DNA of 6,125 nt from a phage, in sequence record PZ049726.1. One strand, given 5' to 3'. How positions within the stretch are numbered: position 1 is the first letter of the stretch; each line of letters begins with the position of its first letter. Below the pieces are notes generated by a model. That model was not told the origin of the DNA. It ran no database searches and saw only the letters and a list, made by a program, of their open reading frames with translations. Both the position numbers and the translations under genes were made by a program. Positions 2,292 through 4,405 of the stretch are shown here, in pieces.

Positions 2292-2393
2292 AAATCCTCC
2301 ATACGTTTTTTAGTTGTAACGACAACATAGATTAAGCTTAATTTGTTCTTTAACGCCTACAATAGAAGCTAAAAAGGCGCATAAAAAAAGAAC

Positions 2394-2522
2394 TTATAAA
2401 AAGTCCTTACCGTATTCTTTAAACCATTTATCTAGTTTTGCATTACTTTCACCATCTATCCAATTTCTAAGTTCCTCGCCTATTTGGTCGAGTTCTTTTT
2501 CAAGCACTGGTATAGTAGTACA
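2394..2522 (-). pseudogene. relic 3' fragment of a Mu F-like head morphogenesis gene (42 codons plus stop, no start codon)
   Basis: Minus-strand translation CTTIPVLEKELDQIGEELRNWIDGESNAKLDKWFKEYGKDFL* aligns without gaps to the -1-frame tail of the upstream Mu F-like gene (CTTIPVLEKNLDEIGQELKDWVNGKQSPKLDSWFEKYGKYFI*). By hand count that is 26/42 identical residues and about 65% nucleotide identity, with differences concentrated at third codon positions. There is no start codon or RBS of its own. Confidence 0.5.
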
Positions 2523-2532
2523 TATAATAAAA

Positions 2533-2550
2533 GCACCTAATTAAAGGTGC
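2533..2550 (-). terminator. hairpin with downstream U-rich tract, candidate intrinsic terminator of the HNH cassette
   Basis: Perfect inverted repeat GCACCT / AGGTGC (6-bp stem, 6-nt loop). On the minus-strand transcript it is followed by UUUUAUUA. The HNH stop codon (2541-2543) lies in the loop. Confidence 0.35.
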
Positions 2551-3224
2551 ATATCCGATAAATATTTATAAAATTGTTTTCTAGTTGTTTTTTCACCTTT
2601 ATATTTGTTGTGAAATTTATTATGACAACTTACACAAAGAGTTACTCCATTGTCTAAATCTAATCTTAAATCTTTATGAGTATCATAGCTATCCAGATGG
2701 TGTGCCACTAAATTGTATCCATCATCTTTGGTTTTACCACATATCTTGCAAGTATAATCATCTCTTTCTCTAACACTTTTACTCCAAGACTTATATCCAA
2801 ATATTCCACGATTTTCAATTCTATGATTTTCGGATATATTGTTATCATATCTTCCATTGTTTTTACCACTATTAGCTTTAGATATTTTCCTTTTATACTC
2901 TTTCGTCTGCATTACTTTTCTAAGATTATCCCTGCTTTCAGTAGAGTTTAAATAAGTATTGGCTATGTTTTTAGAATTATTTACAAATGCTTCTCTGTCG
3001 GATTTATCTGTATTCTTCCACCAATTATCAAAAGCTTCTTTTCTGCTTCTTGTATTAATTCCTAATTTTCTTAATTGTCTTGATAAATTTCCACTATCAC
3101 AATTAAGTTCTTTAGATATCATAGGTATTGACATTTCTTCATCAATGTAAAGTTTTTTTAATACCTCCGAATATTCCATTCCATATCTTTCTTCAACTTC
3201 GATCATTCTCTTAGATTTTCTCAC
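2541..3224 (-). CDS. HNH family homing endonuclease with N-terminal helix-turn-helix-like region
   Basis: C-terminal HNH motif is directly visible: CKICG ... AHH ... DNG ... CVSCHNKFH (Cys-x2-Cys, His-His, Asn, Cys-x2-Cys-His-x3-His). Preferred start is GTG at 3222-3224, with AGGAGG (3231-3236) 6 nt upstream, giving 227 aa. The ORF-track start at 3263 is also GTG but lies upstream of the predicted -10 box. An in-frame ATG at 3204-3206 is an alternative. Confidence 0.8.
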   Translation of the reverse strand: MRKSKRMIEVEERYGMEYSEVLKKLYIDEEMSIPMISKELNCDSGNLSRQLRKLGINTRSRKEAFDNWWKNTDKSDREAFVNNSKNIANTYLNSTESRDNLRKVMQTKEYKRKISKANSGKNNGRYDNNISENHRIENRGIFGYKSWSKSVRERDDYTCKICGKTKDDGYNLVAHHLDSYDTHKDLRLDLDNGVTLCVSCHNKFHNKYKGEKTTRKQFYKYLSDMHL

Positions 3225-3251
3225 AACAAACCTCCTAATGTTTATACTATA

Positions 3252-3280
3252 ATTATAGTACACAATCCATTAGGATTCAA
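3252..3280 (-). promoter_or_regulatory. sigma-70 / SigA-like promoter for the HNH gene
   Basis: Minus strand reads TTGAAT (3275-3280), a 17-nt spacer, then TATAAT (3252-3257). It starts 3 nt after the -1-frame Mu F stop and lies about 16 nt upstream of the AGGAGG RBS. Confidence 0.45.
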
Positions 3281-3282
3281 GT

Positions 3283-3438
3283 TTAAATAAAGTATTTCCC
3301 ATACTTTTCAAACCAACTATCAAGCTTCGGACTTTGCTTTCCATTAACCCAGTCTTTCAATTCTTGCCCAATTTCATCAAGATTCTTTTCTAGTACGGGT
3401 ATTGTAGTGCAAAGTCCATTCGGGTGTCCAACGGCAAA
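3283..3438 (-). other. C-terminal coding segment of the Mu F-like gene lying in the -1 frame relative to ORF 3390-4220
   Basis: The -1 frame is open for 52 codons (FAVGHPNGLCTTIPVLEKNLDEIGQELKDWVNGKQSPKLDSWFEKYGKYFI*), ending at TAA 3283-3285. It contains an HPN-x-x-C-T motif resembling the HPNCRC-type C-terminus I recall for Mu F / SPP1 gp7 proteins, and its last 42 codons are homologous to the relic at 2394-2522. Confidence 0.55.
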
Positions 3439-4220
3439 TTATTAACTGAATAAACAACTCCATTCCTACTCCTACTCATACACAATTCACAAGTTCTATG
3501 ACTACCTGAAGTAAGCCATTTAATTCCAGCAACAAACGGATTTCTTTGGCAACTTCTCTTCTGTGCTTGTTGAAAAGTATGATTTATTGCAGTACGGGCA
3601 AGTCTTTGAGCGTTATAATCAACTTGGGTAGAAGCTTTACGATATGTAGTCCTCCATTTCAAAGACTTTCTAGCACTAGGATTCAAATACACTTCCAAGT
3701 CCTTAGCAATTTCATACATAGACTTCTTTTCTGCAATTCCTTGAGCTAGAATATAGTCAATATCCTTTTCAAACTTCTTAGTGCATGCCCATATTCTTTT
3801 GCTTAAGCCTAATCTATCTTTGTAAAGCTTCCCAGACATTATTTCATTAACTGCAGCTTGAGGAACTTTAGCAAACATATCTATAAAGGTATCAGCTAAA
3901 TCTAAGCTAAAGGATTTTTTTATATCGAAGAGCATATTTAGTTGAGTTTCGTTGGCTATATTAGCAATCTCTATTAAATCCTTACTTAGTCTCTTATCAA
4001 TAGAATTAGAGAAAGTTGAAATATCTGTTTGTAAGGATTTTAATACACTTCTTACATATCTTTCGGATAAACTATCCTTTGATACTTTTGAAAGCTTCTT
4101 AGATGTATTTAAGTACATTTGCTTATATATATCTTTTATTTCTCTTTGAAGCTTCTTTGTTAGATGTATCTTTTTCTTATTAGCTTCTAGGCATAACTTT
4201 TCGTATTCTGATTTATTCAT
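3390..4220 (-). CDS. phage head morphogenesis protein, Mu F / SPP1 gp7-like (apparently frameshifted near the 3' end)
   Basis: 276-aa ORF immediately downstream of portal. The segment KWLTSGSHRTCELCMSRSRNGVVYSVNNLP fits the W-x-T ... R ... G-x-V pattern of the Mu F family. The expected following motif is found in the -1 frame, so the intact gene probably ran from 4220 to 3283. No strong Shine-Dalgarno; the start follows the upstream stop by 2 nt. Confidence 0.7.
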   Translation of the reverse strand: MNKSEYEKLCLEANKKKIHLTKKLQREIKDIYKQMYLNTSKKLSKVSKDSLSERYVRSVLKSLQTDISTFSNSIDKRLSKDLIEIANIANETQLNMLFDIKKSFSLDLADTFIDMFAKVPQAAVNEIMSGKLYKDRLGLSKRIWACTKKFEKDIDYILAQGIAEKKSMYEIAKDLEVYLNPSARKSLKWRTTYRKASTQVDYNAQRLARTAINHTFQQAQKRSCQRNPFVAGIKWLTSGSHRTCELCMSRSRNGVVYSVNNLPLDTRMDFALQYPY

Positions 4221-4222
4221 AA

Positions 4223-4405
4223 TTATTTTCTGTTTAAATCAACATAAAGAGTTTTCTTTATGTATTTAGCCATCTCTAAATATTGACTTCTTATCTTTTT
4301 ATCTATTCTACTATCTTCTAGCATAGTTACAAAAGCATACATTGATTCTTTGAATTCATCAGTTTGTGTAAGCTTTACTTCTAAATTTATAAAGTTATCT
4401 TCCAT
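4223..4405 (-). CDS. hypothetical small phage protein (60 aa)
   Basis: ORF whose ATG overlaps the portal stop (TAATG) and whose stop lies 2 nt before the Mu F-like start. Packed in the operon; no recognisable motif. Confidence 0.5.
   Translation of the reverse strand: MEDNFINLEVKLTQTDEFKESMYAFVTMLEDSRIDKKIRSQYLEMAKYIKKTLYVDLNRK

Follow-up and report, generated by a model that had tools for sequence, protein, structure and literature searches.

A Likely HNH Homing Cassette in the 3' End of a Phage MuF Gene, Associated With a Recurrently Broken DHPNGxC Motif

Introduction

In the phage DNA analyzed here (record PZ049726.1; the whole stretch of 6,125 nucleotides is called the window), a gene for an HNH endonuclease lies between two versions of the end of a MuF-like gene, and the body of that gene is out of frame with the version that directly follows it. 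How did this arrangement arise, and can the broken gene still be read to its end? We consider it likely that the segment from 2523 to about 3440 is an HNH (NUMOD3) homing cassette inserted in the MuF 3' end, for which a target, immunity lesions and recoding are inferred. Its host is a Paraclostridium-type siphophage or prophage. The features are collected in Table 1.

Table 1. Features of the MuF-HNH region, in window coordinates
Feature	Position	Strand	Remarks
MuF / SPP1-gp7-type minor head protein ORF	3390..4220	-	276 aa as now read; probable assignment, PF04233 score below cut-off
Site 1, L-D-H-P-N-G-x-C-T motif DNA	3404..3431	-	TTGGAC^ACCCGAATGGACTTTGCACTAC; putative endonuclease target, disrupted
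Open -1-frame stretch	3283..3438	-	FAVGHPNGL + copy A, from three-frame translation; rest of MuF protein
Copy A	3283..3411	-	cassette-linked version of last 42 MuF codons + stop, CTTIPVLEKNLDEIGQELKDWVNGKQSPKLDSWFEKYGKYFI
HNH promoter	3252..3281	-	-35 TTGAAT 3280-3275, 17-nt spacer, -10 TATAAT 3257-3252
Ribosome-binding site AGGAGG	3231..3236	-	6 nt before GTG start of HNH gene
Free-standing HNH endonuclease gene	2541..3224	-	227 aa
Terminator hairpin	2523..2550	-	GCACCTTTAATTAGGTGC + TTTTATTATA; hairpin 2550-2533 + T tail
Copy B	2394..2522	-	displaced resident MuF 3' end, 42 codons + stop, begins at Cys codon
Intergenic region, resident flank	2292..2393	-	directly after MuF stop in HNH-less relatives

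Results and Discussion

Two Diverged Copies of the MuF Gene End

The original prediction had proposed that two minus-strand segments of 129 nt each, 889 bp apart, align without gaps and both encode the last 42 residues of a Mu F-like protein, with about 62% amino-acid and 65% nucleotide identity. The computed ungapped alignment bears this out, with 84/129 identical nucleotides (65.1%) and 26/42 identical amino acids (61.9%; 27/43 when the stop is counted). As foreseen, residues 1-9 read CTTIPVLEK in both copies, and the differences lie mostly at third codon positions (14/4/27 at positions 1/2/3). The pair stands about 9 sd above the window background, because the second-best ungapped 129-nt match to copy A in the whole window reaches only 59/129 (mean 35.9, sd 5.3), and the likeness ends at both edges (13/60 identical positions upstream, 17/60 downstream). 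The segments thus align well above random expectation. In total, 45 nt differ between the copies, and synonymous sites are saturated. Copy B has neither start codon nor ribosome-binding site, and it lies in frame with the HNH ORF after one TAA and six codons. The C-terminus of copy A, ...YFI before the stop, is common to five of the seven HNH-linked copies and occurs in none of the homologue C-termini listed.

A Single Motif of the MuF Gene Is Broken

The gene order is portal, small ORF and MuF, and the portal is of SPP1 type. As now read, the MuF ORF scores 17.5 bits against PF04233, below the cut-off of 29.6, and is 87% identical to P0001, a 310-aa protein that has this domain. It ends in ...LPLDTRMDFALQYPY followed by a stop, and its last 11 codons (TRMDFALQYPY, then the stop) are the out-of-frame translation of a conserved motif. 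This motif is retained as DH[PA]NGxC in 116 of the 120 best MuF homologues, and in the window it lacks one nucleotide of its His codon, deleted between 3426 and 3425. Because of this missing nucleotide, copy A is in the -1 frame relative to the ORF. Both copies are MuF ends by alignment, as had been claimed, but the hybrid gene is not simply restored, since its body and copy A lie in different frames. The same 1-nt deletion is present in five further independent assemblies (L002, L008, L009, L094, and L095), which include an NCBI genome and an IMG isolate genome.

The same 3-nt spot, at CCN-AAT, is changed in all nine related HNH cassette lineages examined. The lesion types are -1, +1 (CCC-TAA-C), +6 (always of the form CCN-stop-CCN), +11 and replacement of the otherwise invariant Asn codon by a Ser codon; the 930-nt MuF gene has at least six different lesions inside these 3 nt, with none observed in the rest of its length. 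An altered site is present in 9/9 HNH lineages versus 7/23 HNH-less IMG/VR loci (Fisher p 8e-4), and frame-breaking lesions are found in 7/9 versus 7/23 (p 0.02), shared ancestry being uncorrected in both comparisons. Broken alleles also occur with no HNH gene nearby (L002, L003, L095, L104-type, L182, and L184), and intact MuF genes precede two distant HNH lineages (L135 and L231).

These breaks could be ordinary pseudogenizing mutations, undecoded and unrelated to the nuclease, in decaying prophages or in a dispensable MuF C-terminus. Such decay would fit the carriers that are prophages in bacterial genomes, the broken alleles without HNH, the lack of a recoding signal in the window allele, and the fact that SPP1 gp7 is not strictly essential. 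We nevertheless think it unlikely, given the confinement of at least six lesions to one spot, their association with the HNH gene, and what lies on either side of the break. The 42-46 codons behind it form an open frame throughout, in lineages that share only 53-77% identity in their HNH proteins, and omega is 0.07-0.45 in 14 of the 15 HNH-linked copy pairs that could be estimated. For example, copy A of the window and that of L094 differ by 15 synonymous changes at 23 sites and 10 non-synonymous changes at 103 sites (p 8e-8). Among A-type copies omega is about 0.1-0.3, in agreement with the earlier claim that both copies evolved as coding sequence. The codons behind the break are, to judge from these substitution patterns, under purifying selection. 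Ahead of the break, the +6 inserts are accompanied by a covarying hairpin, for which 6.9 of 8 pairs form in 11 stop-type alleles, versus 3.6 in 28 intact and 3.8 in five deletion alleles. Two of its pairs show compensatory changes (AAG/CTT to GAG/CTC, a Lys to Glu change with a synonymous Leu change). These statistics, too, are uncorrected for shared ancestry, and a lesion with its flanking sequence could also be spread by co-conversion with the cassette, with no role in translation.

How the Cassette Entered

Relatives without the cassette (L004-L007, from P. bifermentans and metagenomes) have a single MuF 3' end, which encodes the same protein sequence as copy B and is followed by the same downstream DNA; the cassette is present in L008-L010, and near-identical phage backbones occur both with and without it. 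The MuF body of the window is 93-98% identical to that of L004 over 3800-3560, and copy B differs from the L004 end by one synonymous change in 126 nt, its protein being identical to P0001/P0002. On this evidence, copy B is the resident MuF 3' end. Copy A adjoins the same HNH gene in other assemblies (L008 and L009), and A-type ends accompany HNH genes on differing backbones. The locus had been predicted to be the footprint of a cassette that brought one gene end and displaced the other, and HNH-less relatives with a single MuF 3' end had been expected; L004-L007 are such relatives, their single end is B-type while A-type ends go with HNH genes, and the footprint reading is supported. Several carriers are prophages in bacterial genomes.

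The proposed junction at the CTT codon holds on one side only. On the right, the junction is placed precisely at the Cys codon (2523/2522), as in L008 and L010, and in L094 it lies 3 nt further on. On the left there is no sharp junction at 3411/3412, and the A-type tract begins by about 3438-3445, frameshift included. The cassette of L086 is fused to the last 12 codons, and those of L011, L089, and L015 have no copy B remnant. We propose that the cassette came in through repair of a break, using homology on its left side alone, and that copy B was left behind because the right break end was joined illegitimately. The motif DNA would be the recognition and cleavage site of the nuclease, an inference from the positions of lesions and junctions only, for which there are no cleavage data. 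Lesions at His-Pro^Asn would then shield the cassette carriers, and some HNH-less survivors, from cutting.

Alternatively, the MuF 3' end may have been duplicated locally in tandem and diverged in place, the HNH gene landing between the copies later, with no foreign allele involved. The copies are indeed in register and in the same orientation. With copy B only 1 nt from the HNH-less relatives and copy A 45 nt from copy B, this origin needs one-sided divergence, and it has to contend with A-type ends that travel with HNH genes on different backbones; we judge it highly improbable.

The HNH Gene and Its Expression Signals

The HNH protein consists of an N-terminal helix-turn-helix-like region, NUMOD3 and a C-terminal HNH domain. 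The HNH domain (PF01844, residues 172-220) is detected at E 2.1e-8 and NUMOD3 (PF07460) at 21.4 bits versus a cut-off of 20.4. Residues H175, H176, N192, H201, and H205 (HH...N...H...H) are invariant across 14 HNH homologues, and the protein matches the HNH endonuclease of PDB 5h0m (E 2.4e-5). P0121 is 100% identical to the window HNH protein. The promoter, HNH gene and hairpin that had been placed between the copies were all located (Table 1). The HNH stop codon lies inside the terminator loop, and one terminator was found versus 0.2 expected. These features support a free-standing homing endonuclease gene equipped with a promoter, ribosome-binding site and terminator of its own; the activity and target of the enzyme are inferred.

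The promoter spacer is an uninterrupted target-like sequence, TCCTAATGGATTGTGTAC (3275-3258), and this block is kept in at least eight cassette lineages. It is possibly an operator or a relic of the insertion; binding and repression are at most inferred. I-TevI represses its own expression through an operator that mimics its homing site, and the element here likewise combines target-like sequence with a promoter, between -35 and -10. Unlike the I-TevI operator, it may just as well be left over from the original insertion, and there are no binding or repression data.

These signals also bear on the possibility that the HNH gene sits in a self-splicing group I intron, with I-HmuI-type enzymes as the parallel, and that the MuF body is spliced to copy B. 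In Bacillus and Staphylococcus phages, HNH/NUMOD enzymes are often intron-encoded. Against this, the HNH gene has expression signals of its own, copy A is conserved coding sequence rather than intron RNA, and searches for a group I intron or other Rfam RNA family found none in the whole window, nor in 2380-3480 at E up to 10. Moreover, HPNGxC cannot be rebuilt by any joining of exons, as copy B begins no earlier than the Cys codon, and three cassette lineages have no copy B to join. We find the intron scarcely credible. The terL/HNH_3 insertion of L002 likewise has no group I intron match.

That two co-occurring phage variants were merged into a chimera during assembly, with a sequencing error for a frameshift, can practically be set aside: metagenomic and draft assemblies can collapse or join variants, but the A-HNH-B structure and its junction recur in independent assemblies from different runs (L008, ERR9974868; L010, SRR25019462; partially L009, ERR11525787), and the deletion itself is shared by the five further assemblies named above.

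Can the Broken Alleles Be Decoded?

By inference, the stop-type alleles of the relatives are probably decoded, since their lesions lie in a zinc-knuckle-like C-x2-C...H-x4-C motif. The +1 allele CCC-TAA-C would probably be read by a +1 shift. The CCN-stop-CCN alleles, and CCG...CCA over 11 nt, would probably be read by short hops between matched Pro codons, and the conserved 5' hairpin may aid the hops or the shift in stop-type alleles. Take-off, stop and landing codons in the relatives are CCT TGA CCT, CCG TAA CCT, CCG TGA CCG/CCA, CCA TGA CCA, and CCG TAG...CCA.

Matched take-off and landing codons with an adjacent stop are absent from the window allele (GAC ACC CGA), which also has no slippery heptamer and no conserved structure; the region around its deletion has no significant RNA structure (z +1.6). 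In the absence of heptamer, adjacent stop and conserved structure, plain loss of the MuF C-terminus cannot be excluded, and the window MuF may be truncated or may be decoded by an unknown route.

Several other routes were considered and rejected. For classical -1 frameshifting in the window, there are no X XXY YYZ heptamers in the 13-nt zone in which a shift could still take in the His codon; the only partial slippery candidates, U UUG and C UUU G, are not kept in the sister allele L094, and invariant residues would be lost. Separate translation of the C-terminal piece would have an in-frame ATG, TTG or GTG before the Cys codon in some alleles only, and no ribosome-binding site. Stop-codon reassignment or selenocysteine is contradicted by the presence of both TGA and TAA at the site, by a hairpin that is upstream, not downstream, and by the normal reading of other genes under table 11. 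A phage suppressor tRNA has no support, as a single tRNA was found, an ordinary tRNA-Glu(UUC) in L002.

Extended to the whole HNH family, the proposal is that carriers protect themselves by breaking the DHPNGxC codons and that the ribosome repairs the break in various ways: by a +1 shift, by 6-nt hairpin-driven stop-hops, by an 11-nt hop, or, for the -1 allele, by an unknown route. This is possible, and we put it forward only tentatively.

Comparison With Known Systems

Against this proposal, stop-hops in synthetic constructs were inefficient when measured. The CCN-TGA/TAA-CCN sites of the relatives have the layout described for such constructs, 9 nt for one amino acid; here, unlike in those constructs, the hop is only a prediction. 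According to a 2016 review, no natural cases of in-frame stop-hopping are known (PMC5009743).

In MobA/gene 60 of T4-like phages, a conserved gene is split within a metal-binding motif by an HNH homing endonuclease, whose element includes a stretch homologous to the target it replaced. The insert lies near the nick site and protects carriers from self-nicking; ribosomes skip it by leaving at a take-off codon, which a stop follows, and resuming at a matching landing codon, and some genomes retain the bypass after loss of the nuclease (bioRxiv 10.1101/2022.08.31.505936). Comparable here are the lesions at one DHPNGxC spot, the CCN-stop-CCN of relatives, the 5' hairpin and the HNH-less carriers. 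In contrast to gene 60, where the gap is 50 nt, the gaps here are of 6 or 11 nt, or +1/-1 nt, with no known nascent-peptide signal; the target is a head protein, not a topoisomerase, and the nuclease domain order differs. The window allele, moreover, is without take-off and landing codons, and a block of self-cleavage is inferred from position only.

The bracketing itself has its counterpart in fungal mitochondria. The mORF hybrids of Allomyces macrogynus atp6 and of Glomus sp. atp6, atp9, cox2, and nad3 have a foreign, inserted C-terminus before an endonuclease ORF and the displaced native C*-terminus after it; close relatives have almost the same sequence as the native end, and identity between the two ends is about 64% at the nucleotide level (PMC3630166). 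Here too, the endonuclease ORF lies in the 3' part of a gene between diverged gene ends, at 65% nucleotide identity versus about 64%. The mORF hybrids are mitochondrial and LAGLIDADG or GIY-YIG; the present gene encodes an HNH enzyme, sits in a phage head gene and has a promoter and terminator of its own. Their inserted C-terminus is in phase, whereas copy A is out of frame (-1), with a lesion in the presumed target.

A sporadic distribution, a position in or beside a conserved gene, flank co-conversion and mosaic boundaries are features that this cassette shares with the free-standing homing endonucleases of phages (T4 seg/mob) and with nuclease genes at recombination boundaries (PMC2988022, PMC10448857). 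Those elements usually lie between genes and the gene end is not duplicated, unlike the duplicated MuF end here.

The bracketed cassette alone is a phage counterpart of the well-described fungal-mitochondrial footprint and dates a recent invasion. The main point is the break: nine nuclease lineages alter one 3-nt spot in at least five ways, with the coding behind it conserved. If the motif is the target, these alleles form a natural series of resistance alleles that maps the critical bases of the enzyme. If the stop-type alleles are decoded, they are short, simple natural bypass sites (CCN-stop-CCN with a 5' hairpin), on which the mechanics and origin of gene-60-type bypassing could be tested directly in Firmicutes; natural in-frame stop-hops would then have their first examples, and the pairing of a homing endonuclease with translational bypassing a second, independent one. 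For annotation, the warning is that MuF genes called "truncated" in these prophages are not necessarily dead.

Matches Among Deposited Sequences

Exact look-ups of the window proteins returned none on record. Against deposited phages, megablast matches were confined to Terrisporobacter phage TVCOM_ph1, in its capsid/scaffold region (78%), and the MuF region had no blastn match; a scan of representative genomes found no close HNH relative. With tblastn, the HNH protein had only partial matches of 33-43% among deposited phages, the nearest relatives being HNH/NUMOD enzymes of Bacillus and Staphylococcus phages (33-43% identity). When a 59-aa query was used to search proteins, one candidate came back. 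Finally, a weak match to the GP20-b RNA lies at 2302-2370 (24.2 bits versus a gathering score of 36.2).

Two MuF gene ends around the HNH gene

Copies A and B, the two MuF 3' ends on either side of the HNH gene (Table), align without gaps and are identical at 84 of 129 nt and 26 of 42 amino acids; the runner-up ungapped match anywhere in the window reaches 59/129 (mean 35.9, sd 5.3). Their likeness stops sharply on either side, and the differences fall mainly at third codon positions (14/4/27 at positions 1/2/3), as originally predicted. The promoter, HNH gene and hairpin claimed to lie between them were all found, together with a ribosome-binding site. The observation is therefore real.

Features of the window in gene order; all lie on the minus strand, which carries every gene of the window
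Feature	Position	Domain or signal
terL end	first in order	
SPP1-type portal gene	5811-4405	PF05133
60-aa ORF (portal-MuF slot)	4223-4405	no match
MuF/SPP1-gp7-like ORF	4220-3390	
Copy A	3411-3283	
HNH promoter-like site	3280-3275; 3257-3252	-35 TTGAAT; -10 TATAAT
Ribosome-binding site	between copies A and B	AGGAGG
HNH ORF, 227 aa	GTG start 3224, after MuF ORF	NUMOD3 + HNH
Terminator	2550-2533	hairpin + T tail
Copy B	2522-2394	
Small ORF, 93 aa	2291-2010	no Pfam match
Small ORF	2010-1744	PF13876
Scaffold gene	after 2010-1744 ORF	PF06810
Major capsid gene	last in order	PF20036

HNH-less relatives with a single MuF 3' end, of the kind anticipated, do exist. The 310-aa MuF proteins P0001 and P0002 end exactly in the copy B peptide, and at their loci (L004-L007) the MuF 3' end is one synonymous nucleotide from copy B and continues into the same intergenic DNA as the window from 2393 downward. 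Copy A, which differs from B at 45/129 nt with synonymous sites saturated, adjoins the same HNH gene in the independent assemblies L008 and L009, and the right end of the insertion, where TTTTATTATA meets TGTACTACT (2523/2522), is the same in L008 and L010. At L094, whose HNH protein is only 56% identical, the remnant of the resident gene has 41 codons and starts 3 nt further on; at L086 just the 12 final MuF codons survive, as a fusion with the HNH ORF; and no copy B remnant is left at L011, L089 or L015. Fungal mitochondrial endonuclease 'mORF' gene hybrids have the same pattern of an inserted and a native C-terminus around the endonuclease, including the ~64% identity between the two (PMC3630166). 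This shared footprint, with B resident and A travelling with the HNH gene, supports the original interpretation that the cassette arrived with its own gene end and displaced the resident one. Gene-end duplication around a homing endonuclease is an already known kind of arrangement. Rfam finds no intron, and the recurrence of this structure in several assemblies rules out an assembly artefact.

Copy B is in frame with the HNH ORF, with one TAA and six codons between them (2523-2543; ...DMHL*LGAFII-CTTIPVLEK...), and the tail shared by the HNH family, KQFxx[FY]...HL, bears a faint likeness to the MuF tail; with the L086 fusion, these may be the trace of an old in-frame insertion. The HNH gene of L010 (3332-4015; protein P0122) is mosaic. 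Its C-terminal ~75 residues are essentially the same as in the window, as are the terminator and copy B; the N-terminal part, copy A and the site lesion (+1, not -1) differ, which implies recombination within the nuclease gene.

A broken reading frame at one conserved motif

The original prediction overlooked the frame. The window's MuF ORF reads ...NNLPLDTRMDFALQYPY to its stop, and copy A, preceded by HPNGL, lies in the -1 frame relative to it. The MuF proteins of relatives read ...LPLDHPNGxCTTIPV, and in the window one nucleotide of the His codon is missing (GAC^ACC, between 3426 and 3425). L008, L009 and L094 have the same deletion, as do L002 (Paraclostridium sp. AKS46) and L095, both of them genomes without the HNH gene; a read error is therefore rejected. 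The single 3' end of L002 and L095 is of the A type as far as ...AAGTATGG and turns B-type at TAAGGAC..., which is what A/B recombination losing the cassette would leave. Relative to L004, the A-type tract starts only ~10-20 nt upstream of the deletion, and the MuF gene body (3800-3560) is 93-98% L004-like. Further upstream, a tandem duplication (AGTAGG AGTAGG, 3465-3476, minus strand) adds Ser-Arg after the MuF CxxC, giving CMSRSRNG in place of the CMSRNG of all relatives.

We compared the loci of nine HNH lineages (protein 43-100% identical to the window enzyme). Seven of the nine carry a frame-breaking lesion within or directly after the His-Pro codons: -1 nt in the window and L094, +1 in L010 (CAT CCC TAA C), +6 in L086 (CCT TGA CCT), L089 (CCG TAA CCT) and L015 (CCG TGA CCA), and +11 in L011 (CCG TAG TGA AGC CA). 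In the two most distant, L231 and L135, the HNH gene follows an intact MuF gene whose adjacent Asn codon is swapped (CCT TCA GGT; CCA TCG GGA), giving HPSG. DH[PA]NGxC is kept in 116/120 best homologues, and its Asn is otherwise invariant.

The main rival explanation is plain decay, which remains possible for the allele in the window itself. Against it stands the recurrence of lesions at one spot, as well as the way they associate with the HNH gene. Of 23 close MuF loci sampled without bias from IMG/VR, all lacking the HNH gene, 16 are intact, six have CCG TGA CCG and one has the deletion. The site is thus altered in 9/9 HNH lineages versus 7/23 HNH-less loci (Fisher p 8e-4) and frame-broken in 7/9 versus 7/23 (p 0.02), neither corrected for phylogeny. 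A metagenome pattern scan gave further +6 lineages, all CCN TGA CCN, part with and part without the HNH gene.

Purifying selection downstream of the break also speaks against decay. The 42-46 codons after it are open and conserved in 7/7 HNH-linked broken lineages. Between copies A of the window and L094, both with the deletion, 15 of ~23 synonymous and 10 of ~103 non-synonymous sites differ (omega ~0.07, p 8e-8); other HNH-linked pairs give 0.10-0.45 where estimable, except L086 versus L015 (0.82). Open frames and low omega argue, on sequence grounds, that every lineage translates the C-terminal part, or did so until very recently. As C244, C247, H264 and C269 are invariant in alignment A2, the break falls inside a C-x2-C...H-x4-C motif, which is a likely zinc site. 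A +6 insert, if read through, would put two extra residues between the H and the C.

Candidate recoding signals

In the +6 inserts the stop always lies between matched Pro codons, the arrangement of the 'stop-hop' of synthetic constructs, of which no natural case was known to a 2016 review (PMC5009743). At L011, CCG and CCA lie 11 nt apart with stops between. The CCC-TAA-C of L010 resembles classic +1 shift sites, e.g. that of prfB. A hairpin of 7-9 bp (GGTCAAGG-N7-CCTTGACC), its 3' arm ending 2 nt before the take-off codon, is present in 10 of 11 distinct stop-type alleles. On average 6.9 of 8 pairs form in these, versus 3.6 in 28 intact and 3.8 in five deletion alleles (Mann-Whitney p 3e-5, uncorrected). 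Compensatory changes at two pairs, one of them Lys-to-Glu with a synonymous Leu codon change, are again at odds with decay. In gene 60 forward bypassing, mRNA pairing behind the ribosome is currently under discussion as a driver (bioRxiv 10.1101/2024.12.09.627546). None of the stop-type signals (matched codons, stop, hairpin) was found in the window's deletion allele.

Proposed history

We infer that the HNH enzyme would recognise the motif DNA and cut HNH-less alleles near the Cys codon, and that repair would copy the HNH gene from the donor, together with copy A and the altered site. Where right-side homology failed, the broken end would be joined directly behind the terminator, leaving copy B. 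Hypothetically, the His-Pro^Asn lesions stop self-cutting, in most lineages by small inserts across which the ribosome may shift or hop, such inserts being used because the motif is hard to change at the protein level. The parallel is MobA: the bypass insert of this element gives protection from MobA nicking and outlasts loss of the nuclease (bioRxiv 10.1101/2022.08.31.505936). The site lesions and candidate recoding place the cassette in the MobA/gene 60 theme as a further variant, and make it worthy of experiment.

The HNH promoter spacer TCCTAATGGATTGTGTAC (3275-3258), with CTTGAA before it, resembles uninterrupted L-D-H-P-N-G-x-C-T coding sequence, and at least eight cassette lineages keep the block ATCCTAATGGAxTxTG-TATAAT between variable flanks. 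This element may be an operator to which the HNH enzyme binds, as with I-TevI, or a relic of first insertion at TGTAC^TAC.

Other features of the head module

The nearest deposited phage, Terrisporobacter phage TVCOM_ph1, matches only the capsid/scaffold part (78%); prophages of Paraclostridium bifermentans and gut metagenomes encode the most similar proteins. The 93-aa ORF is an indel: BLAST alignments show a 283-bp segment missing from L008 and L010, where the intergenic region runs directly into the gp49-like gene. After the MuF stop, intergenic DNA present in all relatives contains a match to the GP20-b RNA motif that stays below threshold (2302-2370, minus strand; 24.2 versus 36.2 bits, E 0.06), with TTGCAGGCGTAAAAGAACAAAT kept across loci; no locus compared reaches the gathering score.

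Anti-defence-like genes occur at two related loci: L003 has a Tad2-like gene (PF11195; 5777-5998) in its portal-MuF interval, and L231 an Acb2/Tad1-hairpin gene (PF24729; 2432-2788) that follows the HNH gene. In L002 (3429-4404) and L003 (3384-4359), a second nuclease gene (HNH_3, 208 aa) splits terL at codon 397, and the last 24 terL codons follow it, immediately before the portal gene; no intron signal was found at this insertion. The terL of HNH-less L004 is unbroken (420 aa), and the window's is also of the uninterrupted form.

Five MuF homologues (P0031, P0033, P0038, P0041, P0044; 435-506 aa in total) extend 125-200 aa past the normal ...EFI end, reminiscent of MuF-associated toxin/effector fusions, and another, P0015 (400 aa), contains internal duplications.
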